Of a stretch of DNA of 64,000 nt, positions 6,831 through 50,009 are shown piece by piece. Under the pieces are notes generated by a model. The model was given only the letters and a program-made list of their open reading frames with translations, ran no database searches and had not been told where the DNA came from. The DNA lies in the sequence record MT446423.1; one strand, given 5' to 3'. The DNA comes from Escherichia virus TH58. Each line of letters starts with the position of its first letter. Positions within the stretch are counted from its first letter, which is position 1. A program made the position numbers and the translations under genes.

Positions 6831-6971
6831 TCCCATTTCTAATATAATCCATTGGAATCTTCATTTCACTATCTCCTTGTGCCCCTCTCAAATCAAAAAT
6901 ATTTTCATAAAACAGTTTACATCCTCAATAGATGTGTTAAGATTAAACCATCTACTATAGAGGAAAACAAA

Positions 6972-7154
6972 ATGACAATTGAAGATAAAGAAATTAAGGT
7001 CGACCAGTACTATTCTGTCAACGGTAATGCAGTACAGATAACCAGAGTTTCAAGCCTGGATGTTTGGTACCGTTCGATCAAACATCCAGAAATTGGTGAA
7101 ATGCTTTGTGACCGTAGTATCTTCTGTTCAATTGCGAAGGAAATTAAGCCATGA
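6972..7154 (+). CDS. hypothetical protein (60 aa)
   Basis: Internal ATG (MTIEDKEIKV) of track ORF 6852-7154 preceded by AGGAAA. Confidence 0.35.
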   Translation: MTIEDKEIKVDQYYSVNGNAVQITRVSSLDVWYRSIKHPEIGEMLCDRSIFCSIAKEIKP

Positions 7155-7399
7155 CTAGTTTAGATTCAAAGAAAGTTGTTCTAACTCTTAATGTAAACAA
7201 CGAACGTCTGATATTCATTACCATTTCCGATTTGAACGTTGAAATTGCTAATGGCGTCCGTACTTATCAAACGTCTAAAACACAATGGGACTATATCCCA
7301 ATGTTGACGCTTACTCAGCGTTTAGAATCAATCGGTCTTAAAGACCTTTCAGTAAGTGAAGTGAATTTTATCAAACGCATTGTATCAATCAACCTCTGA
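7151..7399 (+). CDS. hypothetical protein (82 aa)
   Basis: Track ORF, start overlaps upstream stop. Confidence 0.45.
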   Translation: MTSLDSKKVVLTLNVNNERLIFITISDLNVEIANGVRTYQTSKTQWDYIPMLTLTQRLESIGLKDLSVSEVNFIKRIVSINL

Positions 7400-7406
7400 G
7401 GTACTT

Positions 7407-7700
7407 ATGGGTAAAACGTATCGTCGTAAAGATTTGAAAGTTCGTGATTACGACTATTTTGGTAAACGTAAAGCTCCTGACGGTGTTAGCCACAAAGACA
7501 TGGTTGAAAATATTTTCCGCTCAGATAAATGGAAACGTATGAAAGGTGTTGATTCTGAAGTCAAGAACGAAATGAATCGACAACTTCGCAAAGAAGTTCG
7601 TAAGTTGAAAAAAGATGTTTACAGTAAAGAAGAGTATGATTATAATACTTCTCATACTGAAGCCAAACGTAAAGCTAACGAATGTTATCGTTACAGTTGA
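7407..7700 (+). CDS. hypothetical basic protein (97 aa)
   Basis: Internal ATG (MGKTYRRKD) of track ORF 7380-7700 preceded by GAGG. Confidence 0.45.
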   Translation: MGKTYRRKDLKVRDYDYFGKRKAPDGVSHKDMVENIFRSDKWKRMKGVDSEVKNEMNRQLRKEVRKLKKDVYSKEEYDYNTSHTEAKRKANECYRYS

Positions 7701-7707
7701 GGAAATT

Positions 7708-7842
7708 ATGAATATCAAACGAATGCTTTTTAAGCAGGGATTATATACTTTAAATGTTAATCCAAAGGGTGATACAACTAAATGGTCTGTAAATGACTGG
7801 ATTAAGTTCATCGATGAAAATGGGGCGTGGAACACAAAATGA
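7708..7842 (+). CDS. small hypothetical protein (44 aa)
   Basis: Internal ATG of track ORF 7615-7842 preceded by GAGGAAA. Confidence 0.3.
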   Translation: MNIKRMLFKQGLYTLNVNPKGDTTKWSVNDWIKFIDENGAWNTK

Positions 7843-8039
7843 ATCCTGAAAATATTGTGTCATGGCAACTTCGTGAAGAACGTGCCGAATTCTTTGCCAA
7901 TATGAAACTCAACGGCGTTGAGGACGAAGACTTCTTACGCTGGTTCTGGATTTACAAATACAAAGAATGCCAGCACGCTGTACTACTGACTTGTGCAGTT
8001 ATGTATGAAGGCTGGAAAGGCGCTAAAAAGTTCGGTTAA
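7839..8039 (+). CDS. hypothetical protein (66 aa)
   Basis: ATG overlapping upstream stop (ATGA); Trp-rich small protein. Confidence 0.4.
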   Translation: MNPENIVSWQLREERAEFFANMKLNGVEDEDFLRWFWIYKYKECQHAVLLTCAVMYEGWKGAKKFG

Positions 8040-20207: not shown

Positions 20208-20843
20208 ATGAAAACTACTCCTATTACTATCGCTATTGACGCAATCATAAAACAAGCTTCTTCTTTGGCCGCTATGGCCAAAGTAATTAGTCAAAACCCT
20301 GCTCGTTATAATGCTATTCTAGAAACTCTTCGACGCCCAGGACTTAGTAATTATGAAAGTCGTGTAATTATTACAGGTGTTGGTAAGAACGCTAATATCG
20401 CAACTAAAGCTTCTGAGACTTTTGCTTCATTAGGTATTCCTAGCATGTATTTGAACACCGGGCATTATTCTCACGGCGATGCAGGATTCATTGCGCCTAA
20501 TGATGTGTTGATTCATATTAGTCGTTCTGGTAAAACTGAAGAAATGATAGGCGTGGCTAAGCATCTTAAAATGATTCGTCCGAACGTCAAACAGATTCTG
20601 TTGCATTGTAACCCAGACATTCCACAAGAAAATGAAGCCCTTTTTGATTACTCTTTCTGTACAGGCATCGCAGTAGAGGTTGATGAGAATTCTCTGGCTC
20701 CGACTATGTCCACTACATTGTTGTTAGCGCTTATCGATACGTTTGCTATCAACCTTTCGTCTGAACGTGGATTTACCTCTAATGACTTCCTTAAGTTCCA
20801 CCCTGGTGGTGCACTAGGTGCCATGTTACGAGGCGAACAATGA
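20208..20843 (+). CDS. SIS-domain sugar-phosphate isomerase, arabinose-5-phosphate isomerase-like (no CBS domains)
   Basis: GVGKNANIATKASETFASLGIPSMYL..HGDAGFIAPNDVLIHISRSGKTEE matches the KdsD/KpsF/GutQ SIS signature; not found at this locus in T4. Confidence 0.8.
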   Translation: MKTTPITIAIDAIIKQASSLAAMAKVISQNPARYNAILETLRRPGLSNYESRVIITGVGKNANIATKASETFASLGIPSMYLNTGHYSHGDAGFIAPNDVLIHISRSGKTEEMIGVAKHLKMIRPNVKQILLHCNPDIPQENEALFDYSFCTGIAVEVDENSLAPTMSTTLLLALIDTFAINLSSERGFTSNDFLKFHPGGALGAMLRGEQ

Positions 20844-20983
20844 AAGCAATAACAATAGGACTTTTACTATTGATGCTTGTCATGACTATCTACTGGAGCT
20901 TAACGGCTCCAGTAATGATTCCAACACTTGTAATCGGATGGATTATGATTGGACTACAAGCAAAGTATGAATGCTTTAACTAG
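20840..20983 (+). CDS. small hydrophobic protein (47 aa)
   Basis: ORF read by eye; ATG overlaps stop of the SIS gene; two predicted TM segments. Confidence 0.3.
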   Translation: MKAITIGLLLLMLVMTIYWSLTAPVMIPTLVIGWIMIGLQAKYECFN

Positions 20984-20996
20984 AATAGTGTACAAT
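20970..20996 (+). promoter_or_regulatory. putative middle promoter upstream of nucleotidyltransferase-kinase gene
   Basis: MotA-box aaTGCTTTA, 12-nt spacer, -10 TACAAT. Confidence 0.45.
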
Positions 20997-21024
20997 ACTC
21001 CTACTTACCAATGAGGACCACAAC

Positions 21025-22710
21025 ATGAAAAAAGCTGTTATTCTTGGTGCTGGACTGGCAACTCGTTTGTATCCAATAACGCATCATATTCCTAAGGTGC
21101 TTGTTAACTATAAACAAGACACTATTCTGAGCAATTTGTATACAATTTATTCTGACCTTGGCGCAGATGAAATTATTGTAGTAGTTCATTCAAAATTTGC
21201 TGAAACCGTTCGAGCTTATTGTGAGCAAGAAGGGTTCAATGTGACTATTCGTACAGTTGATGAAGCATATGGTTCTGCTTATGCTCTTGCTAAATTGCAC
21301 AAAGATTTAGACGGTCATAATGTAATTGTTAACTGGTGTGATATTATTCCCGATTTTGGTTCATGGTCTTGGAATGTTAACGCAATCTATGTTAAGGGTG
21401 ACGAATGTCGATATAATTTCGACGGTGAAAATATCACTAACGTAGGTTCAACAGGTGGTAATGTTGTAGGAATTTATCAGTTCAAAGACTGGGAATTCTA
21501 TATGGGTTCTACTGATGAGGAAATTCATGAATACTGCAAAGGACGTGATTTCGTAGAATTCCTTTACGGCAGCGCATTCAATAAATCAGAGCTTATGAAT
21601 CTAATTGATTTAGGTGATATGCCTAAACTTGAAAAGGCTCATGAAGTTCGTGAACTTAATCGTAGTTTTAATGCGGTTGAAATTGGTGAAGAAACTGTAA
21701 CTAAATTCGCATTAACCGAACAGGGCCGATCTCTTCAGAAAGATGAGATTTCATGGTATCTTAAAGTGAAATCAGATTCAGTTCCTCAGTTAGTTTCTGT
21801 TAATGAAAATAACTTTGAAATGGAACGCATTAAAGGTAAGCCGGCATTTGAATATATTAAATCCAAATCGAGTCTTGCTCGTCCACAAATTGTTGATGCA
21901 ATTTTAGATGCACTGAAATTCAGCACAGACACTTATTTTGTAAGTCCTGAAACTGTTCGTCGTGATTTCACTAAAGAATTCTATACTAAAGTCATCGATC
22001 GTTGTGAAAGTATTCAACCATTGATTGATTCATTTGGTAAAATCACACATGTGAACTACACTAAGATTGGACGTCTGAAGCCAATGTTGAAACAAGCTTT
22101 AGAACACCTTATTCGTTATCATAACCGTTCTCAGGGACAGTACTCTGTTATTCATGGTGACCCGAACTTCAGTAATACTATGATTACTGATAATGGTGAA
22201 GTAAAGTTTATCGACCCTCGTGGATATTTTGGTGAAACCAAGATTTACGGGCCAAAATTGTATGACGAAGCTAAAGTGCTTTACGCTGTTTCAGGTTATG
22301 ATGAATTCAACGCCAATCCGACCTGGGGACAGTTTACTATTGATGAAATAACCTGTAATGTGACTATTAACATCAATCCATTAGTTTACAAATATGGAAA
22401 GATGAGTTCGTTTAACGTGTATCATCATTTGGCAGTGGCAATTATCTGGATTGCATTAGGTGGTTATTTCAAGAATAATCCACTTAAAGCGGTAGCCGCA
22501 TATTATAAAGGTATGGAACTTCTGACTAAGCAATTACGTAACATGGGCCGTGTACTTCAGGACGGCACTATTAGTTATGATGTAGCAGAACCTGTAACGG
22601 CTACTCTGATTACAAAAAATCCTGGTAAATGGGTACTAACTGATAAAGAAACTGGTGTTTCTTATCGTCCAATCGGTGGCGATAACACTCATCAATGGGA
22701 ACGAATCTAA
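21025..22710 (+). CDS. bifunctional sugar-1-phosphate nucleotidyltransferase / sugar kinase (561 aa)
   Basis: N-terminal GAGLATRL nucleotidyltransferase signature; C-terminal choline-kinase/APH-like kinase fold with HGDPNFSN catalytic loop and FIDPRGYF. Confidence 0.75.
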   Translation: MKKAVILGAGLATRLYPITHHIPKVLVNYKQDTILSNLYTIYSDLGADEIIVVVHSKFAETVRAYCEQEGFNVTIRTVDEAYGSAYALAKLHKDLDGHNVIVNWCDIIPDFGSWSWNVNAIYVKGDECRYNFDGENITNVGSTGGNVVGIYQFKDWEFYMGSTDEEIHEYCKGRDFVEFLYGSAFNKSELMNLIDLGDMPKLEKAHEVRELNRSFNAVEIGEETVTKFALTEQGRSLQKDEISWYLKVKSDSVPQLVSVNENNFEMERIKGKPAFEYIKSKSSLARPQIVDAILDALKFSTDTYFVSPETVRRDFTKEFYTKVIDRCESIQPLIDSFGKITHVNYTKIGRLKPMLKQALEHLIRYHNRSQGQYSVIHGDPNFSNTMITDNGEVKFIDPRGYFGETKIYGPKLYDEAKVLYAVSGYDEFNANPTWGQFTIDEITCNVTININPLVYKYGKMSSFNVYHHLAVAIIWIALGGYFKNNPLKAVAAYYKGMELLTKQLRNMGRVLQDGTISYDVAEPVTATLITKNPGKWVLTDKETGVSYRPIGGDNTHQWERI

Positions 22711-23096
22711 TGCACCGTGTAAAAAACATGCTTAATCTTTGTTTTGACGTCGATGATTGTATAACAGAGTGGAATAACAATCGTGATTACGTGAACTTCA
22801 AACCGGACGTCGAAATGGTGTCTGCCATTAATGCCCTGTATGATGCAGGGCATACCATAACGCTTTACACTGCTCGCGGTATGAAGTCAGTCGGTCCTGG
22901 TCGTATAGCAATTGACATTCTCCCAAGTCTGATTCAGAACTTGGCAAACATTGGATTGAAGTACCATAATTTGCTAACACATAAACCAGTATATGATTGG
23001 ATTATCGACGACAAAGCTATGCGTCCTGACGAATTCAAAGCTCTTATGAATAAAGGCGAATTCGAAACATTTAAATCATATAAACCGAATCTATAA
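22710..23096 (+). CDS. HAD-superfamily phosphatase (128 aa)
   Basis: HAD motif I FDVDDCIT, motif II LYTARG, motif IV IIDDKA; start may instead be ATG 22695. Confidence 0.65.
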   Translation: MHRVKNMLNLCFDVDDCITEWNNNRDYVNFKPDVEMVSAINALYDAGHTITLYTARGMKSVGPGRIAIDILPSLIQNLANIGLKYHNLLTHKPVYDWIIDDKAMRPDEFKALMNKGEFETFKSYKPNL

Positions 23097-23150
23097 TAAT
23101 TTAAGTAAGACCTGCAAAAACCATCGCAACAATTAACGCGAGATGCAAAA

Positions 23151-24311
23151 ATGAATACCTTTAAAATCGGAACGAATTTTGATTTAGCTCTTCTTGATAA
23201 AATCGTAGAGCTCAATAAAACTTATCCTAATAGCTTGATAAACGAAGTATACGGCTCTACAAGAGAAATGGCTTTTGTAGCAGCCAGACCTGATTTTAGG
23301 CTTCCTGACGTTGACAAAAAGATGTTAGAAGATTACGTTAAACGTTGTAACGAATTAGGTATTTGCTTTAACTATACACTCAACACGATAAATCCTGGTT
23401 CAAAAAGAGAACTAGTTGAGTGGAAGAAGAAAGCTATTCAGGATTATGTTCAGTATCTTTGGTCAATAGGTGTATGGCGTATTACTATCGCTAACCCTGT
23501 TGTTATGGAAATTGTTCGTGAAGTCAATAAAGACATTGAGATTGAAGTTTCAACAATTCTACATGTCGATGCTGTAACTCAAATCAAATACTTGCATGAC
23601 CAATATAATATCAAAAAGGTCTGCTGTGGAATTCACAAGAACCGTTCAGTTTCTTTCCTGAAGCGTGCAGCAGAGTTTTGCAATAAGAACAATATAATAT
23701 TTGAAGTTCTTGTAAATGAGTTCTGTTCTAATGCTGGTAAAGGGTATACAACACATTGTAGTTATCGTGACTCTTGCTATATTTTCCATAGCACCGATGT
23801 TACAGTAGATGATGCCAAATCCTTAAATGGATATCCAATGCAACACTGTATTAAAGCTCGTGATACAGATCCATTTAACTGGTTGAGAACTCGTTTTGTT
23901 CGTCCTCAAGATTTGAAACTTTATAATGATATTGGTATCACTCAATTCAAAGTTTCAGGACGTACAGGTAGCACAGACTACATTTTGAAAGTTCTTGAAG
24001 CATACGCTTCTGAAAAGTTTGAAGGTAATTTGTTAGAACTGTGGAAGCCTTTAGAGACTATTTTCACTCTTGAAAACGAAACTGAGTTTTCACATACAGT
24101 AAATATTGAAACCTCTTTGTTAGATGGCTTTTTAGAAAAAAGGTGGTTCAAACATCCAGATTTCGATTGTGCTAATGAAATCTGCGGGACGACGTGTACA
24201 TATTGTGAAAGATATTATAAACGTCAGTTATCTAAAAATGGGTTATCAGAAAACTCTATATCTATTATTGATATAACTAACTCTGACGACGCTTTGAGGT
24301 ACCCAGAATGA
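23151..24311 (+). CDS. Cys-rich enzyme of unknown function, possibly TIM-barrel / peptidase-U32-like (386 aa)
   Basis: Alternating beta-strand/helix pattern and EVLVNEFCSNAGKGYTTHC segment loosely resemble U32-family proteins; C-terminal CANEICGTTCTYC cysteine cluster; assignment uncertain. Confidence 0.55.
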   Translation: MNTFKIGTNFDLALLDKIVELNKTYPNSLINEVYGSTREMAFVAARPDFRLPDVDKKMLEDYVKRCNELGICFNYTLNTINPGSKRELVEWKKKAIQDYVQYLWSIGVWRITIANPVVMEIVREVNKDIEIEVSTILHVDAVTQIKYLHDQYNIKKVCCGIHKNRSVSFLKRAAEFCNKNNIIFEVLVNEFCSNAGKGYTTHCSYRDSCYIFHSTDVTVDDAKSLNGYPMQHCIKARDTDPFNWLRTRFVRPQDLKLYNDIGITQFKVSGRTGSTDYILKVLEAYASEKFEGNLLELWKPLETIFTLENETEFSHTVNIETSLLDGFLEKRWFKHPDFDCANEICGTTCTYCERYYKRQLSKNGLSENSISIIDITNSDDALRYPE

Positions 24312-24589
24312 TTTCTAGAAAAACTTTTAACCACCAACTTAATGAAGAGATTTTGACTACGAAAATTAACAGCAACGAACAAATTCTTAAAAAGGCCCTT
24401 ATTGGCCTGTTTGAAACTAAAGCGGCTAAAGTGATTAAAGAACCTGTTCAATTGTAATACTACGCTGATGCATTTCTTCATAGTGTTCTTGGAAATATCG
24501 ATGCTGAAGCTTTACGTTATATCAACACCGCTAAGAAATTCAAATAAGCTTTATGAATTGAGTATATAATAAATTGTATTGAGGTAAAC

Positions 24590-25306
24590 ATGGGAAAACA
24601 TAACACAATGAAATATATTAAAGCCGCAGATTTTCAATCCGCATTTAAAGCTGTCAATCGTGAAATTTTAGAAAACCCGGAATTCGTTACTGATTCTCGT
24701 ATTGGACGTTGTAATGAAATTGGGTCTATGACAGTAGTTGTTGACACTCCATCATCATTCAAAATGACCGACCCACGTATTAACCGCATCTCTTATGAAT
24801 ATGCTGAAGATTTCTGGAAGTTTATGATTTCTGGCGGTACCGACGCAGAAGAAGCATTTAAGGCATATCCTAATGTCGCTAAATTTATTTCTAAACCAAA
24901 ATCAGATGCTTTGCCTGCGAACTTCAACACTTTCTATGGTCCACGAATTGCGGCCCAGTTACCAGCTCTTCTCAAAGAACTTAAAGAGAAACCTAATTCA
25001 CGAAGAGTTGTGTTCCAAATTCTAGAAAGTTCAGATCAGGCTTTGCTTGATTCGGACGAAACACTTGAATATCCATGTACTGACTCAGTGACTTATTATA
25101 TTCGTGATGGTAAGCTTTATACCCACTGTCATATGCGTTCTCAGAACTGTGCTGTTGTTATGCAGTTGGATTTTTATCTCCAAGGAAAATTACTTCATTA
25201 TATCGCTAACGAATGTGGTGTAGAAGTTGGTGATTATACTCATACCATGGTAAGTGCCCATGTGTTTGAACGTGATTTTGATTATGTTAAAGGATTCCTT
25301 GACTAA
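24590..25306 (+). CDS. 42: dCMP hydroxymethylase gp42 (thymidylate-synthase fold)
   Basis: 238 aa; TS-family active-site region PCTDSVTYYIRDGKLYTHCHMRSQNCAVVMQLDF; position between gene 43 and uvsX. Confidence 0.82.
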   Translation: MGKHNTMKYIKAADFQSAFKAVNREILENPEFVTDSRIGRCNEIGSMTVVVDTPSSFKMTDPRINRISYEYAEDFWKFMISGGTDAEEAFKAYPNVAKFISKPKSDALPANFNTFYGPRIAAQLPALLKELKEKPNSRRVVFQILESSDQALLDSDETLEYPCTDSVTYYIRDGKLYTHCHMRSQNCAVVMQLDFYLQGKLLHYIANECGVEVGDYTHTMVSAHVFERDFDYVKGFLD

Positions 25307-26205
25307 TGGCTATTTTCCGCGTACCTATCTTGAGTATGCGGTCTTATGAAACTGGTCAGTATGCTATCCTTAAGGATGGTAACTTCCAACTTCATTTGCA
25401 CCGTGCTAATCCAGGTGATGTGATTACATATCCACGTAATGCATCTGATATTAAAGAATGTGAACGTCTTTTCCCAGAATTTAAGTTTGTTCCATTATGG
25501 TATAAAGATAACGCGTATAACACTCGTAAATATTTCTGGTCTGAAAATGAATTTGTGGTTGATTCATTAATTGCTTATTATGATTGTGATTTTCTAATCA
25601 CAGATATCACTGGATATGACGGCGCTTTTGATGTGGAATTCAATTTCAATATCACTGCAGACCCTAATAAACCGCGTTTTTATATTGACGAATTCTTAAA
25701 AACCGACATGTTGTCGGTTAATCGTTCACTTCAAACTACTGTGTTGAATGAACGTCAAAAGGAAGTGCTGGTTAACGCTGGTGCGGATGGTAATAAGATT
25801 ATCGTAACGCAGAAAGTTATACGTCCTTCCATCATGCAGCGTCTTGTAGGTGATTTGGCTCCTATTCATCTAGATGGTATTTTTCATCCATTTCGAATTA
25901 GTGACCCGTGCTATCGTTTTGAACAAGTGGTTGAATGTGCAATTCAATTAGGTCAACCGCTTTATATAACCGATCCAAATAATAGCTTCGACAGAAATAA
26001 GTATCCTGAAGAAGCGCTGATTCGAATTTTTAAACCAACTAAAACTGAGTACTATCAAATTCTTAAAGGTCGGCCGAAGATTCAATATTTCGAAAATCCT
26101 GAAGAAGTATTCCATCCAGGTCTTGGCGAGTTCATCTACTTTAACGCTTTAATTTCTTCGCCGTATAATATACCTAAATATGAAGATGTCGTAATCGAGG
26201 AATAA
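25306..26205 (+). CDS. putative glycosyltransferase at the beta-gt locus (candidate hmC-DNA arabinosyltransferase), 299 aa
   Basis: Occupies the T4 beta-gt position but is unrelated to beta-gt; C-terminal FEQVVECAIQLGQPLYITD resembles a GT-B donor-binding segment; function inferred. Confidence 0.5.
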   Translation: MAIFRVPILSMRSYETGQYAILKDGNFQLHLHRANPGDVITYPRNASDIKECERLFPEFKFVPLWYKDNAYNTRKYFWSENEFVVDSLIAYYDCDFLITDITGYDGAFDVEFNFNITADPNKPRFYIDEFLKTDMLSVNRSLQTTVLNERQKEVLVNAGADGNKIIVTQKVIRPSIMQRLVGDLAPIHLDGIFHPFRISDPCYRFEQVVECAIQLGQPLYITDPNNSFDRNKYPEEALIRIFKPTKTEYYQILKGRPKIQYFENPEEVFHPGLGEFIYFNALISSPYNIPKYEDVVIEE

Positions 26206-26206
26206 A

Positions 26207-26755
26207 ATGGCTAAAATTATTTTAGTAGATGGCCCGGATAATGCTGGTAAAACAACTTTCATTAATGACATAATGGAAATTAGTGAAAGATATGTAAAGA
26301 TTGATTTCCCTAAACGAACAGTTGACGGACGTTTCGATGTTAAGTCTCGAAATGAAGTTGGTTGTTTCGAAACGATGTTGAATTATTTAGATCCTACTAA
26401 GATTTATCTGTTAGACCGTGGATATATTAGTAACTGGGTTTATGGACGTATTCGTCAAGATGCTGACTCGGTTCTTGACGTTTATGAACAGGATTATGTT
26501 CGTCTTTGCCAAAACCACGATGTGTTCACAATTATTTTAACACGTAACGAAATGACTGAAAGTTTTGAAGACGACCTTATTACTTTGTCTTCATTCGGTT
26601 TTAATACAGTAATTTCATATTTTGAAGAGTTTGCAATCCATAACGAAATCCAAACGTATCAATTACTTAATCATGATGGTGCTAACAAAGTTATAGGATT
26701 TAATGCAAGCGAACGTAATAATTTGATTACAGAAATTATCAAATGGGCTCGTTAA
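26207..26755 (+). CDS. P-loop kinase, nucleotide-kinase-like (182 aa)
   Basis: Walker A ILVDGPDNAGKTT at N-terminus, LDRGYISN downstream; thymidylate/deoxynucleotide-kinase-like architecture. Confidence 0.6.
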   Translation: MAKIILVDGPDNAGKTTFINDIMEISERYVKIDFPKRTVDGRFDVKSRNEVGCFETMLNYLDPTKIYLLDRGYISNWVYGRIRQDADSVLDVYEQDYVRLCQNHDVFTIILTRNEMTESFEDDLITLSSFGFNTVISYFEEFAIHNEIQTYQLLNHDGANKVIGFNASERNNLITEIIKWAR

Positions 26756-26854: not shown

Positions 26855-28027
26855 ATGTCTGATTTAAAATCTCGTCTGATTAAAGCTTCTACTTCTAAAA
26901 TGACTGCAGACTTGACTAAGTCTAAGTTGTTTAATAATCGTGATGAAGTCCCTACTCGTATTCCGATGTTGAATATTGCATTAGGTGGTGCACTGAATGC
27001 TGGGTTGCAATCAGGCTTAACTATTTTTGCTGCTCCTTCTAAACACTTTAAAACGTTGTTTGGACTGACCATGGTTGCAGCATATATGAAGAAATATAAA
27101 GATGCAATTTGTTTGTTCTATGATTCAGAATTTGGTGCTTCAGAATCTTATTTTCGTTCAATGGGTGTTGATTTAGACCGTGTAGTTCATACTCCTATTC
27201 AATCTGTCGAACAACTTAAAGTTGATATGACTAATCAGCTTGACGCGATTGAACGCGGTGATAAAGTTATTATCTTTATCGATTCAATCGGTAATACTGC
27301 ATCTAAGAAAGAAACTGAAGATGCATTGAACGAGAAAGTCGTAGGTGATATGTCTCGTGCTAAGGCACTTAAATCTCTTTTCCGCATTGTGACTCCTTAT
27401 CTGACTATTAAAGATATTCCGTGTGTTGCAATTAACCATACCGCAATGGAAATCGGTGGATTGTATCCTAAAGAGATTATGGGTGGTGGTACAGGTATTC
27501 TTTACTCTGCTAACACTGTATTCTTTATCTCTAAACGTCAGGTTAAAGAAGGTACAGAATTGACGGGTTATGACTTCACGTTGAAAGCAGAAAAATCTCG
27601 CACCGTTAAAGAAAAATCTACTTTCCCAATCACGGTTAATTTTGATGGCGGTATTGACCCATTCAGTGGCTTGTTAGAAATGGCAACTGAAATTGGTTTT
27701 GTAGTTAAGCCTAAAGCTGGTTGGTATGCTCGTGAATTCCTTGACGAAGAAACAGGCGAAATGATTCGTGAAGAGAAATCGTGGCGTGCTAAAGCTACTG
27801 ATTGTGTAGAATTCTGGGGACCATTGTTTAAACACAAACCTTTCCGAGATGCAATTGAAACTAAATATAAACTAGGTGCTATCTCTTCTATTAAAGAAGT
27901 TGATGATGCTGTTAACGACCTTATTAATTGCAAAGCAACAACTAAAGTTCCGGTTAAAACTTCTGATGCTCCGTCTGCAGCAGATATTGAAAACGACCTT
28001 GACGAAATGGAAGATTTCGATGAATAA
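26855..28027 (+). CDS. uvsX: recombinase UvsX (RecA-like)
   Basis: 390 aa; Walker A APSKHFKT; acidic C-terminal tail; T4 synteny. Confidence 0.95.
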   Translation: MSDLKSRLIKASTSKMTADLTKSKLFNNRDEVPTRIPMLNIALGGALNAGLQSGLTIFAAPSKHFKTLFGLTMVAAYMKKYKDAICLFYDSEFGASESYFRSMGVDLDRVVHTPIQSVEQLKVDMTNQLDAIERGDKVIIFIDSIGNTASKKETEDALNEKVVGDMSRAKALKSLFRIVTPYLTIKDIPCVAINHTAMEIGGLYPKEIMGGGTGILYSANTVFFISKRQVKEGTELTGYDFTLKAEKSRTVKEKSTFPITVNFDGGIDPFSGLLEMATEIGFVVKPKAGWYAREFLDEETGEMIREEKSWRAKATDCVEFWGPLFKHKPFRDAIETKYKLGAISSIKEVDDAVNDLINCKATTKVPVKTSDAPSAADIENDLDEMEDFDE

Positions 28028-44509: not shown

Positions 44510-46330
44510 ATGATTAAAAATGAAATTAAGGTATTGTCAGACGTAGAACATATTAAGAAACGTAGTGGCATGTATATTGGTTCTTCGGCCAAAGAAGCCC
44601 ACGAGCGTTTTTTGTTTGGTAAATATCAACAAGTTGAATATGTTCCTGGTCTGGTTAAATTAATCGATGAGATTATTGACAACTCGGTTGATGAAGCTAT
44701 TCGTACATCATTTAAGTTTGCAAATAAAATTGATGTGCAAATTAAAAATAATCAAGTTTCTGTTGAAGATAACGGACGTGGTATTCCTCAAGGTTTAGTT
44801 ACCGACCAAACAGGTGAACAAATTCCTGGGCCTGTAGCAGCCTGGACTATTCCAAAGGCTGGCGGTAACTTTGGTGATGACTCTGAACGTAAGACTGGTG
44901 GTATGAATGGCGTCGGTAGTAGTTTAACTAATATCTTCTCTACGTTGTTTACAGGCATCACGTCAGATGGTGAAAATGAAATCACTGTTAACTGTTCAAA
45001 TGGAATGGAAAACAAATCATGGACTTCTAAGAAATCTAAAGGTAAAGGCACTAAAGTAATCTTCACTCCTGATTTCTCTTCATTCGAAGAGCATAATTTA
45101 TCTCAAATTTATTTAGATATTACTTTAGACCGACTTCAAACATTGGCAGTCGTTTATCCTGATATCAAGTTCACATTTAATGGTAAAAAGGTTGATGGTA
45201 ATTTTAAACGATTTGCTAAACAATTTGGCGAAGATAACATCATTCAAGAAAATGATAAAGTCTCTATAGCATTCACAACATCACCAGACGGCTTCCGTCA
45301 TTTAACTTATGTGAATAACATCCATACCAAAAATGGCGGTCATCATGTTGAATGTGTAATGGATGATATCTGCGAACATCTTTTGCCGGGTATTAAAAAG
45401 AAATATAAGGGTATTGAAGTCACTAAAGCTCGTGTTAAAGAATGTCTCACAATGTTGATGTTTATTAGAGACATGAGCAACATGCGTTTTGATTCTCAGA
45501 CTAAAGAACGTTTAACGTCAACGTATGGTGATATTCGTAATCATATCCAATTGGATGCTAAGAAAATTGCTCAGGCACTTCTTAAAAACGAAGCCTTGAT
45601 TATGCCTATTGTTGAAGCAGCATTAGCTCGTAAATTGGCAGCAGAAAAGGCTGCAGAAACTAAAGCAGCTAAAAAGGCAACTAAAGCTAAGGTTCATAAG
45701 CATATTAAAGCTAACCAATGTGGTAAAGATGCAGATACGACATTGTTTTTAACAGAAGGTGATTCGGCAATTGGTTATCTCATTGATGTTCGTGACCGTG
45801 AACTACACGGCGGATTCCCATTACGTGGTAAGGTGATGAATAGCTGGGGTATGTCATATGCTGATATGATGAAGAACAAAGAGCTCTTTGATATCTGTGC
45901 TATCACAGGTCTTATTCTTGGTGAAAAGGCAGAGAATACAAACTATCGTAATATTGCAATTATGACCGATGCCGATCATGACGGTCTTGGAAGTATTTAC
46001 CCGGCTTTGCTTGCTTTCTTTAGTAATTGGCCTGAATTGTTTGAACAAGGACGTATTCGCTTTGTTAAAACACCTGTAATTATTGCACAAATTGGCAAAA
46101 CTCAAAAATGGTTTTATACTGTAGCTGAGTATGAAGAAGCCAAAGATACACTGCCTAAGCATAGTATTCGATACATCAAGGGATTGGGCTCACTTCAGCG
46201 GGATGAATATAAAGAAATGATTCAAAACCCTGTGTACGATGTAGTTAAACTTCCTGAAAATTGGAAAGAACTATTTGAAATGCTCATGGGTAACGACCCT
46301 GAACTCCGTAAAGACTGGATGCTTGGTTAA
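44510..46330 (+). CDS. 39: DNA topoisomerase II large subunit (gp39 and gp60 as one continuous ORF)
   Basis: 606 aa; GHKL ATPase (IDNSVDEA), Toprim (LFLTEGDSA, IMTDADHDG); covers both the T4 gp39 and gp60 regions in a single frame. Confidence 0.9.
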   Translation: MIKNEIKVLSDVEHIKKRSGMYIGSSAKEAHERFLFGKYQQVEYVPGLVKLIDEIIDNSVDEAIRTSFKFANKIDVQIKNNQVSVEDNGRGIPQGLVTDQTGEQIPGPVAAWTIPKAGGNFGDDSERKTGGMNGVGSSLTNIFSTLFTGITSDGENEITVNCSNGMENKSWTSKKSKGKGTKVIFTPDFSSFEEHNLSQIYLDITLDRLQTLAVVYPDIKFTFNGKKVDGNFKRFAKQFGEDNIIQENDKVSIAFTTSPDGFRHLTYVNNIHTKNGGHHVECVMDDICEHLLPGIKKKYKGIEVTKARVKECLTMLMFIRDMSNMRFDSQTKERLTSTYGDIRNHIQLDAKKIAQALLKNEALIMPIVEAALARKLAAEKAAETKAAKKATKAKVHKHIKANQCGKDADTTLFLTEGDSAIGYLIDVRDRELHGGFPLRGKVMNSWGMSYADMMKNKELFDICAITGLILGEKAENTNYRNIAIMTDADHDGLGSIYPALLAFFSNWPELFEQGRIRFVKTPVIIAQIGKTQKWFYTVAEYEEAKDTLPKHSIRYIKGLGSLQRDEYKEMIQNPVYDVVKLPENWKELFEMLMGNDPELRKDWMLG

Positions 46331-46344
46331 TTGATAGATGTCCT

Positions 46345-46376
46345 AAGCTCCTGAAGGAGCTTCATTTTAATTTTTA
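46345..46376 (+). terminator. putative terminator
   Basis: AAGCTCC-tgaa-GGAGCTT followed by CATTTTAATTTTT. Confidence 0.5.
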
Positions 46377-46389
46377 ATAAGGCTTAATT

Positions 46390-47490
46390 ATGAAAGTTAT
46401 GTTTATCCCATCTCGTGCGGTCCCATTTAATCCTGACCGTGTACAAGGTGGCCTTGAAGCAGTACATTTAAATGTGTTGAAATATTTAGTTTCTATTGGT
46501 GCTGATATTGATTATATCGGTTTTGATAATGACACGTTTGGTGACTGGAAAGTTACACACCATCCTGTTGGTCATCTGACTAAATTCAGTCTAGGTATGA
46601 GTTATACTATGGCTCGTAAGATTGTTGAACTAGCCGGCATCCATGAATACGATTTTGTTGTTACTATGGAACCGACTAAACTAACCGTTCAGGCAATTAA
46701 AGACGCAGGTCTCTCTAAAGTTCATAAGAATTTTATGGCAACACCATTTGAACCGGTATCTCGTGGCATTGTTCAAATTTGGGACCAGACTATTCAAATT
46801 CATAAGAATGGTGGTAAGAGTTATGCTCCTACTAAAGCCTTCCGTGAATTTGAACGTAAATATTGTTATATGACTTCAGGTCTGACTGACAAAATTGATT
46901 ATGATTATTGGCGAGCAAATCCGTTGTTTGAAGCCGAAGATTATCCGGTTATTTGTTTGAATGAGAAACCTGAAGTTCTTCCGGCGACTGATTTGATTAT
47001 TAGTGCACAACGTTATGACACTAAAATGCGTCGTACTGATGTTGCTCTTGAAGCGATTAAAGCACTAGGCGAAAATGGTGTAGGATATTGTCCAAGCAAA
47101 TGGGCACCACCAGCTAAATATCCTGTTATTATTGATGCTCAACATAGTGAAATCATGGAACGTCTTAAAACAGCTAAAGCACTTATTAATACGTGTCCTG
47201 ACACAGGTACGGTAGAGAATAGTTCTATTGAAGCCATCTCTAAAGGTGTCCCTGTAATCCAGTTAGTTTTTAAGGATTATCCTCATGCGACATTCGAATA
47301 CGACCCAGATACTGTGCGTGTAGAAATTGATTCCTCTACTCCTAAGAAAGAAGTAGTTGCGCTTTACACAAAAGCTGTATTAGAATTCACTGACACATAC
47401 GAAGCTCGAGTTAAACGTGCTGAAGCAGTATGGAAGAAGTATAATCGAGATGCAGTTGTTGCGATGTGGGATAAAATCTTCACAGCGTAA
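46390..47490 (+). CDS. GT-B-fold glycosyltransferase (GT1/GT4-like), 366 aa; second candidate DNA-modifying glycosyltransferase
   Basis: N-terminal MKVMFIPSRAV..GGLEAVHLNV and C-terminal GTVENSSIEAISKGVPVI resemble GT-B donor-binding motifs; absent from T4 at this locus. Confidence 0.6.
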   Translation: MKVMFIPSRAVPFNPDRVQGGLEAVHLNVLKYLVSIGADIDYIGFDNDTFGDWKVTHHPVGHLTKFSLGMSYTMARKIVELAGIHEYDFVVTMEPTKLTVQAIKDAGLSKVHKNFMATPFEPVSRGIVQIWDQTIQIHKNGGKSYAPTKAFREFERKYCYMTSGLTDKIDYDYWRANPLFEAEDYPVICLNEKPEVLPATDLIISAQRYDTKMRRTDVALEAIKALGENGVGYCPSKWAPPAKYPVIIDAQHSEIMERLKTAKALINTCPDTGTVENSSIEAISKGVPVIQLVFKDYPHATFEYDPDTVRVEIDSSTPKKEVVALYTKAVLEFTDTYEARVKRAEAVWKKYNRDAVVAMWDKIFTA

Positions 47491-47582: not shown

Positions 47583-47783
47583 ATGAGAACGTATAACGTA
47601 GACTTGGAACTTTTTGATAAAGCAGTGCTCCGGGAATTCCGGCTTATCCAAAGATTTTTTGATATCGAATCAGCTGAAGCCTTTAAAGAACGCTTTAAGG
47701 AAATTCGATATAAAATACAAAACGATACAGCTACTAAAGAAGAACTTCTTGAAGTAGCAGAAATTTTTAAACGTAACTTGTGA
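47583..47783 (+). CDS. hypothetical protein (66 aa) upstream of rIIA
   Basis: Track ORF with GAAGAGAA SD. Confidence 0.5.
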   Translation: MRTYNVDLELFDKAVLREFRLIQRFFDIESAEAFKERFKEIRYKIQNDTATKEELLEVAEIFKRNL

Positions 47784-47795
47784 TGAGAGAAAAAT

Positions 47796-50009
47796 ATGAT
47801 TATTGAAACGGCTAAAGAAACGATTATTGGTTCAGGCGGTAAGAGCACAGCATTTACTATTCAAGGCAATAGCAAAGTTTATAAGATTTTGTCTAATGAC
47901 CTTTATACAAACAAAGAATTGGCTTGTGTACGTGAATTAATCACAAACTGTATCGATGGACAAATTCTTAACGGTTGCACTGATAAGTTTATTGTTCAGG
48001 CTCCAGGTCGTTTAGACCCGCGTTTTGTAGTTCGAGACTTTGGTCCTGGTATGAGTGATTTCACCATTCGAGGTAATGACGAAGAGCCAGGAATCTATAA
48101 CTCATATTTTGCTTCAACTAAAACATCGAGTAACGATTTCATTGGTGGATTCGGACTCGGCTCTAAAGCTCCACTAGCATATACCGATACGTTTAACCTT
48201 ACGTCTTATCACAACGGTGAAGTTCGTGGTTATGTAATTTATCAAGATGACAGTGGTCCACAAATTAAGCCAACCTTTGTAGATAAGATGGGCCCTGATG
48301 ACCGGACTGGCGTTGAAGTAGTTGTGCCTGTTAACCCAGAAGATTTTGAAAAGTTCGCATCTGAAATTGCATATGTTATGCGTCCTCTAGGTGATATTGC
48401 AGAAGTTCGTGGTGTTAAAGATATCAAATACTTCCCTGAATTTGACGATGTATATTTGGCCAAGGAAGCTCCATGGGGTGAACGCGGTAATATCATGGCT
48501 GTTTATGGCGGTATTGTATATCCAATCGGAAGTGTTATTAAAGAACAAACGTGGATGATGACGCGATGCACTACAGCTTATATTAAATTCCCTATGGGTG
48601 AACTAGATGTAGCTCCGTCTCGTGAAGCATTGTCATTTGATAAACGTACAGTAGCAAATATCCATAAACGTGTTGCAGAAATCGATGCTAAATTGTTCGC
48701 TGAAGATTCTAAGAAATGGATTGATTGTAAATACCCACGTCATGTGTTCCGTGAAATTGATTCTCTTGGCTATACCGCTCGTAAATACATGGAAAAGGCC
48801 GGGTCTAATATTGAATCACTGAAATACTCTAAAGAACAACTAACTTATTCTGAGTTGTACAAACGTTTTAAAATGGGGCCTGAGTGGTGTAATCTTGGTG
48901 TCGTATACGATATCGTTGAATCCCCTCGTCTTCGTCGTATTCGTGAAAGCGGTAGCTCAACGGCAACCATTTCAATTAACAGTCTGATTGGCATTAACAT
49001 TAAAAATGTTGAAATTGTTATTGACGACGTTAAGGGACGCGTTCCATTAATGCGAGCTCTTAATTCAATTGAAATGTCTAAAGACGAGGTTAAATTAACC
49101 GGTAAAGTTCCACGCGGTTTTGGTAAAAGCGTACTATTCGTTGACCCTACAGACGAAGATGCAATGAAACTTCTGGAACGCCTTAAAGTTATCTTTGATG
49201 GCGACAACATTAACATGTACAAGACTTCAGAGCTTTTACAAATCGTTAAGCCATGGATTGAAGTCAGGAAACGGACTAATGAGCCTCGTCCTAAATCGCC
49301 AAGTGCTCATCGATTCTTTAAGAATGAAAACGATGTTTGGGTATCAGAAGACCTCTTTATTCCGGCAAGTGAAGCAGATGAAATCCAAGGTTATGCTATA
49401 GTTCGTAATCGTTCTAATGCTGAATGTCTTGACGCAGATAAAGGTTGGTTGAACTATGACTCCAATTTCTTAACCCGTATTGCTGATTTGTCAGGTATTA
49501 AAGAGTTCACTGTAGTTCGTCCACAGATTGCTAAGAAAGTTCGTAAACTTGGTGAAGTAGAATGCTTGTTCGAAAAATCAATTAATGACTATATTACGCT
49601 AATCGATAAAGTGGATTATGATGAGTATGTATCACCAAGTCGTAGAGCACAGCCTTATTTGAATCATATTACTCGTAATGAAGAGCTTAACTTCCTTAGT
49701 AAGTATTTTAGCTCTAAGAACAAAGAAATCAGTAAAGACTTTGCAAAGCTCTCAACAGTAAATAATCGTTGGGGATGGAATCGATTCGCAGGTGCTACTA
49801 ATACAGACCTGAATAAGAAGTTAGAATTGTGTGCTAAAATTTTCGATAAGCTTAAAGATAATGCTTACGATAATGATGATAAAATGGTTATTGAATTTGA
49901 AACCAATTATCATATTGTGTCAGAATACATGGGACGACGTGGTACTCTTTCTAAAGAACAGGTCGCTCAAATCGTTAAATTCATGAAGGCCGTGGAAGCG
50001 GCCAAATAA
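47796..50009 (+). CDS. rIIA: rIIA protein
   Basis: 737 aa; N-terminal GHKL-like ATPase region; followed by rIIB as in T4. Confidence 0.9.
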   Translation: MIIETAKETIIGSGGKSTAFTIQGNSKVYKILSNDLYTNKELACVRELITNCIDGQILNGCTDKFIVQAPGRLDPRFVVRDFGPGMSDFTIRGNDEEPGIYNSYFASTKTSSNDFIGGFGLGSKAPLAYTDTFNLTSYHNGEVRGYVIYQDDSGPQIKPTFVDKMGPDDRTGVEVVVPVNPEDFEKFASEIAYVMRPLGDIAEVRGVKDIKYFPEFDDVYLAKEAPWGERGNIMAVYGGIVYPIGSVIKEQTWMMTRCTTAYIKFPMGELDVAPSREALSFDKRTVANIHKRVAEIDAKLFAEDSKKWIDCKYPRHVFREIDSLGYTARKYMEKAGSNIESLKYSKEQLTYSELYKRFKMGPEWCNLGVVYDIVESPRLRRIRESGSSTATISINSLIGINIKNVEIVIDDVKGRVPLMRALNSIEMSKDEVKLTGKVPRGFGKSVLFVDPTDEDAMKLLERLKVIFDGDNINMYKTSELLQIVKPWIEVRKRTNEPRPKSPSAHRFFKNENDVWVSEDLFIPASEADEIQGYAIVRNRSNAECLDADKGWLNYDSNFLTRIADLSGIKEFTVVRPQIAKKVRKLGEVECLFEKSINDYITLIDKVDYDEYVSPSRRAQPYLNHITRNEELNFLSKYFSSKNKEISKDFAKLSTVNNRWGWNRFAGATNTDLNKKLELCAKIFDKLKDNAYDNDDKMVIEFETNYHIVSEYMGRRGTLSKEQVAQIVKFMKAVEAAK

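Follow-up and report, generated by a model that had tools for sequence, protein, structure and literature searches.

What does a second glycosyltransferase gene, lodged between the topoisomerase and rIIA genes and well away from the other sugar genes of its genome, contribute to an RB69-like phage? The question was raised by a 64,000-nucleotide stretch of DNA (the window) from Escherichia virus TH58 (MT446423.1), a Mosigvirus, that is, an RB69-like T-even phage. RB69-like phages are common in phage-therapy collections, and the answer bears on the way in which their DNA is shielded. The gene, here designated GT2, most probably supplies the second DNA arabinosyltransferase in the pathway by which Mosigviruses hypermodify cytosine. 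The gene is real but not new, being the already described second arabinosyltransferase gene of RB69-like phages. Thus, the contribution made here is supporting comparative evidence only, namely agreement of GT2 copy number with the number of sugars, linkage to the arabinosylation cluster outside Mosigvirus, and purifying selection.

The gene and its locus

The GT2 open reading frame runs from ATG to TAA at exactly 46390..47490 on the plus strand and encodes 366 aa. Both motifs quoted in the first-pass annotation are present in this frame, MKVMFIPSR...GGLE as residues 1-23 and GTVENSSIEAISKGVPVI as residues 273-290. PHROG 8302 was matched across positions 1-366 of 366 (E=7e-222), ~155 near-identical orthologues occur among sequenced phages, and pairwise dN/dS for five orthologues was 0.03-0.11; GT2 is therefore a real gene rather than a chance ORF. 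The same ratios point to strong purifying selection.

Upstream of GT2 lies the gene for the topoisomerase II large subunit (44510..46330, plus strand; Pfam GyrB/HATPase/Toprim). Its 606-aa product is an unsplit gp39+gp60 fusion, residues 1-474 matching T4 gp39 and residues 473-604 matching T4 gp60 by tblastn. The downstream neighbor is a 66-aa rIIA.1 homologue (47583..47783, plus strand; 71% identical to T4 rIIA.1, E=7e-34), followed by rIIA (47796..50009). The original placement between gene 39 and rIIA thus describes the flanks correctly, although the topoisomerase gene is a 39+60 fusion and the rIIA.1 homologue intervenes before rIIA. A related statement, that nothing but small ORFs occupies this locus in T4, needs correction. 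The T4 genes between 39 and rIIA are mobA, 60.1, 60, and rIIA.1; because the topoisomerase gene of the window is unsplit, the GT2 site truly corresponds in T4 to the 54 bp that separate gene 60 from rIIA.1.

The topoisomerase gene and GT2 are separated by 59 nt, and this spacer contains a terminator-like hairpin (AAGCTCC-TGAA-GGAGCTT; 46345..46362, plus strand) followed by a T-rich tail. No sigma-70-like promoter was found in this spacer, where the scan gave no excess over shuffles, so GT2 is probably transcribed by read-through from upstream. In some Mosigviruses, a NUMOD3 homing endonuclease gene sits at exactly the topoisomerase/rIIA.1 junction.

A described protein with a GT-B fold

GT2 is 98.9% identical to RB69 ORF003c/gp3 (NP_861693.1), which is found in the same synteny. 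ORF003c was proposed as a DNA arabinosyltransferase on the basis of HMM/HHpred analysis (Thomas et al., 2018; PMC6024577), and the gene between rIIA and topoisomerase has been named "arabinosyltransferase 2" in papers from 2025-2026 (PMC13326640; PMC13390438), two independent studies that propose this gene and locus as the second transferase. A mark for confirmation by experiment is given in one of them only to the 5-hydroxy-dCMP (5hodCMP) synthases and DLP3 gp76/gp77, and RB69 gp3 is listed without it (PMC13326640). In the BASEL annotation, the Bas46 counterpart bas46_0103 is a "putative hmC-arabinosyltransferase". Bas46 lacking "the arabinosyltransferase Aat", which may be the GT2 counterpart, is sensitised to a plasmid-encoded defence system. 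Frameshifts in the gene in LH01 and EP32B, if real, would be natural null alleles.

Combined sequence and structure searches revealed 99% identity between GT2 and the crystallised glycosyltransferase of phage HY126 (9iqz/9ir0; E=1.4e-196). These structures were released in 2025, 9IQZ being the apo form and 9IR0, by its title, the form with UDP. An AF2 model of GT2, built on a 6-sequence alignment, was of low confidence (pLDDT 61.5, with N-domain region 116-187 below 50) and was used for fold-level matching only, with no residue-level claims. The model displays alternating beta/alpha elements and matched 262 PDB chains at E<=0.001, those listed being of GT-B type; 9iqz/9ir0 ranked first and enzymes of the GT4/GT1-type GT-B families next. 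GT2 is thus a GT-B fold glycosyltransferase at the structural level, and the identity to the crystal entries together with the fold matches bears out the call first made from its motifs.

No Pfam family matched GT2 even at E<=10, and no NCBIfam model matched at E<=1; the family was accordingly assigned from structure rather than from sequence models. The gathering scores of Pfam Glycos_transf_1 and Glyco_transf_4 (CAZy GT4) were not reached by GT2, and its relatives gave only sub-threshold Pfam matches to GT4-conflict, Glyco_trans_1_4, and Glycos_transf_1. The family is too narrow for a deeper alignment: 5 clusters were recovered from 5.8 billion proteins, 11 representatives from 1.84 billion, and 7 loci from IMG/VR. 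Seven residues are invariant across it: G20, R208, R214, E281, G286, P288, and V289. The second Glu of the EX7E motif corresponds to E281, with G273 at position -8 and E276 five positions before E281. Predicted isoelectric points were 6.3 for GT2 and 5.1 for GT1, the second transferase of the genome described below; GT2 is not basic, so its charge does not argue for DNA binding.

The arabinosylation cluster in the same genome

The genes for the 5hodCMP synthase, GT1, and UDP-arabinofuranose formation all lie on the plus strand between DNA polymerase and uvsX (20208..26755). The donor pathway begins with a SIS-domain arabinose-5-phosphate isomerase equivalent to RB69 gp55 (20208..20843; PMC13326640) and continues with a bifunctional sugar kinase and nucleotidyltransferase that makes UDP-arabinofuranose (21025..22710), the equivalent of RB69 ORF53_52c and HY126 AfhE, recognised by Pfam NTP_transferase and weak kinase matches (PMC6024577; PMC13326640). 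A 133-aa ORF (22695..23096), whose product is 56-64% identical to its DLP3/Acj61 counterparts, occupies the position of the HAD-like sugar phosphatase RB69 gp51/HY126 AfhF, the role being taken from PMC13326640. The single sugar-donor pathway postulated in the first-pass annotation is thus present at 20208..23096. Next comes a gene for a Peptidase-U32-like protein equivalent to RB69 gp50 (23151..24311; PMC13326640, Table 1), which lies inside the Mosigvirus cluster and for which no match was found in the Acinetobacter-phage loci.

The acceptor base is made by a thymidylate-synthase homologue, a 5-hydroxy-dCMP synthase (24590..25306; Pfam Thymidylat_synt), which is near-identical to the HY126 structures 9iqc/9ir2 (E=1.8e-162), of which 9iqc is a 5-hydroxy-dCMP synthase; this activity has been demonstrated for RB69 gp48 (PMC13326640). 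Its stop codon overlaps the start codon of GT1 (TAATG). GT1 (25306..26205; 299 aa) is the orthologue of RB69 gp46:47, 99.3% identical to ORF046c/047c, and is the proposed initiating (alpha) arabinosyltransferase (PMC13326640). No Pfam match and no PDB sequence match were obtained for GT1. A paralogous relationship between GT1 and GT2 was considered and rejected, as hhalign assigned a homology probability of 0.1%; the two distinct glycosyltransferases suspected at the outset are therefore indeed present, and unrelated. The last cluster gene before uvsX encodes a thymidylate-kinase-like nucleotide kinase equivalent to RB69 gp45 (26207..26755; PMC13326640).

Chemistry of the modified DNA

Mosigvirus DNA contains mono- and di-arabinosylated 5-hydroxycytosine (5hoC), not hydroxymethylcytosine, and an ether bond joins the sugar straight to C5 (PMC13390438; PMC13326640). 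The acceptor first suggested for GT2, arabinosyl-hmC, is accordingly unsupported, in line with the near-identity of the thymidylate-synthase homologue to 9iqc. NMR showed that the RB69 base carries beta-D-Araf-(1->3)-alpha-D-Araf (PMC13326640), and in Mosigvirus NP the ratio of mono- to di-arabinosyl forms is 1:4 (PMC13390438). The DNA of Bas46 and Bas47 is doubly arabinosylated. Phage Thanatos is mono-arabinosylated and Acinetobacter phage DLP3 tri-arabinosylated (PMC13326640). DLP3 encodes two paralogues of GT2, gp76 and gp77, which in combination extended RB69 DNA by another arabinose in vitro, with UDP-Araf as donor; individually the transferases showed no activity, both being required together, and these paralogues extended arabinosylated DNA but did nothing on 5hoC DNA (PMC13326640). 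As a bulkier group, the disaccharide presumably shields phage DNA from a wider range of attacks, including restriction, CRISPR-Cas, and modification-dependent defences and nucleases.

Two options had been offered for a pair of transferases sharing one donor pathway, sequential addition and sequence-context specificity. The RB69 di-arabinosyl chain, the 1:4 ratio in NP, and the proposal of GT2 as second transferase in both papers favor the former.

Distribution and gene context

GT1 was detected in 348 phage records from many genera, Thanatos included, whereas GT2 was found by tblastn in only ~210. Approximately 137 records contain GT1 and the cluster with no detectable GT2; at tblastn E<=1e-3, GT2 was not detected in Thanatos or other GT1-only phages, and its absence from Thanatos is also stated in PMC13326640. 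T4 and Tequatrovirus-type genomes likewise gave no GT2 tblastn match, with the exception of the mislabelled JK45. Mosigviruses carry one copy, and RB69, NP, and Bas46/47 among them have been shown to be di-arabinosylated. Two tandem copies lie inside the cluster in 55 Acinetobacter phages, among them the tri-arabinosylated DLP3. In phages of known chemistry, then, GT2 copy numbers of 0, 1, and 2 track sugar numbers of 1, 2, and 3.

Gene context points the same way. GT2 occurs only in phages carrying the 5hoC/UDP-Ara cluster, and in every non-Mosigvirus lineage with recoverable context it is located within that cluster or borders on it. Five Acinetobacter-phage loci share the order thymidylate-synthase homologue-GT1-kinase-GT2a-GT2b, and in a metagenomic relative GT2 is directly upstream of uvsX; two such relatives (P0008 and P0010) are on short contigs, and useful context came from one only. 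The Mosigvirus copy, by comparison, is ~20 kb from the cluster.

Proposed mechanism and alternatives

In the proposed pathway, dC would be replaced by 5-hydroxy-dC, made as the dNMP by the thymidylate-synthase homologue (as shown for RB69 and HY126), while the genes at 20208..23096 would build UDP-D-arabinofuranose (as shown for HY126 AfhE/AfhF). GT1 would then place the first, alpha-linked arabinofuranose on the C5 oxygen. GT2 would bind UDP-Araf in its GT-B cleft and join another arabinofuranose to O3 of the sugar already on the DNA, yielding beta-D-Araf-(1->3)-alpha-D-Araf-O5-dC on most, not all, cytosines. UDP binding is shown for the 99%-identical HY126 protein by the title of 9IR0. The acceptor and linkage are suggested by the phyletic pattern, by the product chemistry, and by what the DLP3 paralogues do in vitro. 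Family invariance combined with GT4 motifs suggests that R208 and R214 bind phosphate and that E281 binds ribose.

Could GT2 instead be the initiating transferase, with GT1 extending the chain or doing something else? This was the original assignment of RB69 ORF003c by HMM/HHpred (Thomas et al., 2018; PMC6024577), which the BASEL annotation follows. It is GT2, moreover, that is the pathway transferase crystallised with UDP, GT1 lacks any Pfam or PDB sequence match, and no GT1 homologue has demonstrated in vitro activity on 5hoC DNA (PMC13326640). Set against this are the ~137 records that have GT1 and the cluster yet lack detectable GT2, among which Thanatos still carries one arabinose, the tracking of sugar number by GT2 copies, and the failure of the DLP3 paralogues to act on 5hoC DNA, although they extend arabinosylated DNA (PMC13326640). 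An initiating role is thus improbable. The same chemistry weighs on the idea that GT1 and GT2 are alternative first transferases serving different cytosine subsets in the manner of T4 alpha-gt and beta-gt. T4 does provide a precedent in two unrelated GT-B enzymes with a common donor; however, NMR revealed a single base-proximal alpha linkage with the second sugar on O3 of the first, that is, a chain (PMC13326640), and a PDB profile search at E<=10 recovered neither T4 enzyme. Because only one base-proximal linkage (alpha) has been reported, the T4 analogy drawn in the first-pass annotation is a misfit, and we give a context-specific first transferase almost no credence.

A third reading detaches GT2 from DNA altogether, making it an unrelated accessory gene at the topoisomerase/rIIA junction that acts on the host envelope, a phage protein, or a small molecule. 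The ~20 kb between GT2 and the Mosigvirus cluster would fit such a role, as would a protein that is not basic and whose best structural neighbors act on lipids, thiols, and LPS. Its confinement to phages with the 5hoC/UDP-Ara cluster, its linkage to that cluster in every other lineage with recoverable context, and the action of its paralogues on DNA in vitro (PMC13326640) nonetheless make a non-DNA acceptor very improbable.

The preferred assignment, a second DNA arabinosyltransferase, can be elaborated further. On this view, GT2 would be a beta-(1->3)-arabinofuranosyltransferase with an inverting mechanism on a retaining-GT4-like scaffold. Its action, incomplete in that ~20% of cytosines stay mono-arabinosylated, would depend on sequence context and create a patterned mono/di landscape. 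The gene itself would be a portable "extra sugar" module, able to pass from one T-even phage to another during co-infection through endonuclease-linked co-conversion. Portability is suggested because the gene has been displaced from the cluster to a junction where some Mosigviruses carry the NUMOD3 endonuclease. As a joint proposal, this elaboration is speculative and on the whole unlikely.

Comparison with known systems

The closest known proteins are RB69 gp3, the HY126 glycosyltransferase, and Bas46 bas46_0103. Each has 366 aa and is 98.9-99% identical to GT2, differing from it by a handful of amino-acid substitutions only. They share its locus (topoisomerase large subunit, then the glycosyltransferase, rIIA.1, and rIIA) and are accompanied by the same 5hodCMP-synthase/GT1/UDP-Ara cluster; the DNA of the window phage is ~97% identical to that of its nearest sequenced relatives. 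More distant are DLP3 gp77 and gp76 (arabinosyltransferases 2/3), which are 44% and 41% identical to GT2 over the full length and have the invariant G20, R208, R214, and E281 in common with it. They form a tandem pair within the cluster, whereas GT2 is a single displaced copy, and their product is a trisaccharide, both enzymes being needed for the third sugar, in contrast to the Mosigvirus disaccharide (PMC13326640).

Beyond this family, the best non-self fold matches were the bacterial GT4-type GT-B enzymes BshA, PimA, MshA, and WaaG (Foldseek E ~1e-8), with 11-14% sequence identity and, for GT2, no Pfam GT4 match. GT2 shares with GT4 enzymes the N-terminal GG loop, the Glu of "...EA..xGxPV", and an RYD...R element similar to their R/K phosphate-binding pair. 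At the position of the first Glu of the GT4 EX7E motif, GT2 has G273, and the proposed acceptor is a DNA-borne sugar. Inverting enzymes of the GT1 family scored as well as GT4-type enzymes in the fold search. The nearest fold neighbors include retaining GT4 enzymes, yet the second linkage is beta; whether inversion is needed depends on the donor anomer.

The T4 alpha-glucosyltransferase (GT72) and beta-glucosyltransferase (GT63) resemble GT2 in their GT-B fold, UDP-sugar donor, and, as proposed for GT2, phage DNA acceptor. In contrast to the role proposed for GT2, they are alternative first transferases whose direct target is the hydroxymethyl group of the base. HHpred similarity of ORF003c to 1XV5 has been reported (PMC6024577). 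When all PDB sequences were searched with the GT2 family profile (HMMER, E<=10), only 9iqz was returned, and no homology to either T4 enzyme was found. The beta-glucosyl-HMC-alpha-glucosyl transferase of T2 and T6 is a second DNA glycosyltransferase that extends the base sugar and leaves a mixture of mono- and disaccharides. Its product, gentiobiosyl-mdC, has been described in T2/T6-like phages (PMC13390438). This enzyme uses UDP-Glc to add glucose on hmC, in contrast to arabinofuranose on 5hoC, and the comparison is one of function. In converting glucosyl-hmC to gentiobiosyl-hmC, the T2/T6 enzyme offers a better analogue of GT2 than the T4 pair does.

Genomic Context of the GT2 Gene

The open reading frame under study, hereafter GT2, runs from ATG to TAA on the forward strand (46390..47490, +) and encodes 366 residues, exactly where the first-pass annotation had placed it; its product contains both motifs quoted there, GGLE (residues 20-23) and GTVENSSIEAISKGVPVI (residues 273-290). 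GT2 is a real gene, because its product matches PHROG 8302 ("unknown function") over its full length (E=7e-222), has about 155 near-identical orthologues, and shows a dN/dS of 0.03-0.11 (pairwise Nei-Gojobori; window plus four orthologues). The surrounding 5.5 kb are 97-97.5% identical to many genomes of Mosigvirus, the RB69-like T-even phages infecting E. coli and Shigella, and the protein shares 98.9% identity with RB69ORF003c. Its orthologue in Bas46 and Bas47, both BASEL phages, already carries the annotation "putative hmC-arabinosyltransferase".

On its 5' side, GT2 is preceded by the gene for the topoisomerase II large subunit (44510..46330; 606 aa; Pfam GyrB, HATPase, and Toprim matches), and downstream lie a 66-aa rIIA.1 homologue (47583..47783; 71% identity to T4 rIIA.1, E=7e-34) and then rIIA (47796..50009). 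The topoisomerase is a single protein corresponding to T4 gp39 (residues 1-474) and gp60 (residues 473-604), unsplit; thus, the window phage has neither the mobA/60.1 insertion of T4 nor its 50-nt translational bypass in gene 60. T4 itself has no GT2 homologue, and its gap between gene 60 and rIIA.1 measures just 54 bp; a defective mobA endonuclease, which splits the T4 topoisomerase gene, occupies the same general region. The 59-nt spacer before GT2 (46331-46389) contains a terminator-like hairpin (46345..46362), and no promoter-like site was found in it; GT2 is probably co-transcribed with the topoisomerase gene. Whereas the window has merely this short hairpin-bearing spacer, several Mosigviruses (p000v, NC_055781.1, 2331-3128; phiC120; phiE142; vB_Eco_F27; SQ17) carry a 265-aa NUMOD3-motif homing endonuclease at the same junction.

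In two deposited Mosigvirus genomes, GT2 is frameshifted. LH01 (PP434429.1) has lost one nucleotide from an AAAA run (window ~47163-47166), which cuts the protein off ahead of the TGTVEN...E281 motif, and vB_EcoP_EP32B (OR544955.1) has a 16-nt deletion (window 46974-46989) past about residue 195. Both frameshifts could stem from errors in sequencing or assembly, or they could represent natural null alleles; if they are real, both phages would be expected to be mono-arabinosylated. Shigella phage JK45 (NC_054940.1, 298-1901), a record filed under Tequatrovirus despite its Mosigvirus GT2 locus, has an intact GT2 and, after it, a 136-aa ORF in which the opening residues of rIIA.1 (MRTYN) are joined to GT2 residues 237-366, reflecting either a tandem partial duplication of roughly 0.5 kb or an assembly artefact.

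The Arabinosylation Cluster

The partner genes of GT2 lie elsewhere in the window, between DNA polymerase (17456..20167) and uvsX (26855..28027). In order, they encode a SIS isomerase (20208..20843), a nucleotidyltransferase/kinase (21025..22710), a 133-aa equivalent of RB69 gp51 (22695..23096) described as a HAD-like phosphatase (PMC13326640), a peptidase-U32-like protein (23151..24311), a ThyA homologue related to 5-hydroxy-dCMP synthase (24590..25306), the 299-aa glycosyltransferase GT1 (25306..26205; 99.3% identity to RB69 ORF046c/047c), and a nucleotide kinase (26207..26755). Structures 9iqc/9ir2 of phage HY126 are near-identical to the ThyA homologue; the HY126 structures come from the work of He et al. 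(2026, Nat Chem Biol). No similarity was detectable between GT1 and GT2 (hhalign probability 0.1%), and the view that two distinct glycosyltransferases accompany a single donor pathway (20208..23096) is thus upheld. The U32-like gene is just a putative "sugar or heterocycle reductase" in the literature (PMC13326640), and tblastn found no counterpart of it in five Acinetobacter-phage loci.

The ThyA homologue and GT1 genes share one base (TAATG, 25304-25308), and GT1 stops one base short of the kinase gene (26205-26207). Spacing this close suggests that base synthesis, first glycosylation, and phosphorylation are translationally coupled. Neither transferase is basic (pI 6.3 for GT2, 5.1 for GT1, and 4.7 for the GT1 of Acinetobacter phage DLP3). 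An acidic GT1 adjoining a nucleotide kinase is compatible with addition of the first arabinose to a mononucleotide rather than to DNA, a question raised by Lee et al. (PMC13326640).

Distribution and Copy Number

Homologues of GT1 are present in 348 phage records, spanning Mosigvirus, Dhakavirus, and phages of Klebsiella, Serratia, Yersinia, Proteus, Edwardsiella, Shewanella (Thanatos), and Acinetobacter. Those of GT2 are present in only 210-211 records, of which about 155 are single-copy Mosigvirus-type genomes and 55 are Acinetobacter phages carrying two copies. Among phages of known chemistry, the number of sugars follows GT2 copy number, with one arabinose on the base in Thanatos (no GT2 detected), two in RB69, NP, and Bas46/47 (one copy), and three in DLP3 (two copies).

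Outside Mosigvirus, wherever its surroundings could be recovered, GT2 sits physically within or at the edge of the arabinosylation cluster. Five Acinetobacter-phage loci read polymerase, SIS, NTP-transferase/kinase, HAD, ThyA homologue, GT1, kinase, and the tandem copies GT2a and GT2b. A metagenomic relative (35% identity; ENA contig k141_689949, 72-1516) lies directly 5' of a uvsX homologue (61% identical), which puts it at the final position of the polymerase-uvsX variable region of this uncultured T4-like phage. The Mosigvirus gene is displaced about 20 kb from the cluster. In Acj9, unlike in other Acinetobacter-phage loci, the ThyA-homologue/GT1/kinase block is 5' of the SIS, NTP-transferase, and HAD genes, and one of the two tandem paralogues (6846-7951) is frameshifted into two ORFs, as also noted by Thomas et al. 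(2018; PMC6024577).

Fold and Conserved Residues

Pfam and NCBIfam scans of the GT2 protein gave no match, and GT2 falls outside strict membership of the Pfam GT4 models. A GT2 family profile searched against all PDB sequences matched a single entry pair, 9iqz/9ir0 (E=1.4e-196; 99% identity; released 2025-07-16), labelled in Foldseek "phage HY126 glycosyltransferase" and "phage HY126 glycosyltransferase with UDP". An AF2 model built from only six sequences was mediocre (pLDDT 61.5); with it, Foldseek ranked 9iqz first (TM 0.72), followed by GT-B enzymes (E about 1e-8, 11-14% identity) of both the retaining GT4 type (BshA, PimA, MshA, WaaG, tll1591) and the inverting GT1 type (GtfA and others). 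The GT-B assignment of the first-pass annotation was therefore sound. Invariant across the ten most diverse members are G20, G142, R208, R214, E281, A282, G286, P288, and V289, which we take to fit a GT4-like GG loop, R/K phosphate-binding pair, and ribose-binding Glu; R208 and R214 would form the phosphate-binding pair and E281 would contact ribose. The EX7E motif lacks its first Glu.

Proposed Reaction and Alternatives

In RB69 DNA, the base that bears one or two arabinoses is 5-hydroxycytosine rather than hydroxymethylcytosine (hmC), the disaccharide being beta-D-Araf-(1->3)-alpha-D-Araf in ether linkage at C5 (Lee et al., 2026; PMC13326640). GT2 most likely catalyzes UDP-D-Araf + alpha-D-Araf-O5-dC (DNA) -> beta-D-Araf-(1->3)-alpha-D-Araf-O5-dC (DNA) + UDP, and it probably acts in the second arabinosylation step, not the initial one. 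The first sugar is alpha-linked and the second beta-linked; the enzyme may be of the retaining or the inverting kind, both of which occur among its fold neighbours. UDP binding is shown for the 99%-identical protein by the title of 9ir0, and the product structure is established in RB69 (PMC13326640). For the DLP3 paralogues, UDP-Araf as donor and DNA as acceptor have been demonstrated: gp76 and gp77 together add a third arabinose to RB69 DNA in vitro, and the single enzymes are inactive on 5hoC DNA (PMC13326640).

The candidate arabinosyltransferase of Thomas et al. (2018; PMC6024577) was the 366-residue RB69 ORF003c, selected with custom HMMs, HHpred, and Phyre2, which would make GT2 the initiating enzyme; however, phages with GT1 alone still arabinosylate, and the copy-number pattern also disfavors this view. 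A non-DNA acceptor is likewise improbable given the linkage of GT2 to the arabinosylation cluster and the activity of its paralogues on DNA.

The proposed role of GT2 as second arabinosyltransferase is already in print (PMC13390438), in the Durham-collection paper that reports a mono:di ratio of 1:4 for Mosigvirus NP. Lee et al. attribute the di-arabinosylated species, as a proposal, to gp3, and they list RB69p003 as "beta-arabinosyltransferase 2" and gp46:47 as "arabinosyltransferase 1" (PMC13326640). Bas46 and Bas47 are doubly arabinosylated, and deletion of "the arabinosyltransferase Aat" in Bas46 sensitized that phage to a plasmid-encoded defence system.

Of the two readings offered in the first-pass annotation, sequential addition survives, with 5-hydroxycytosine replacing hmC as the base. 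The other, specialization by sequence context as in the T4 alpha/beta pair, is disfavored, as there is a single base-proximal anomer and the product is a chain. GT2 is better compared with the T2/T6 enzyme responsible for gentiobiosyl-hmC.
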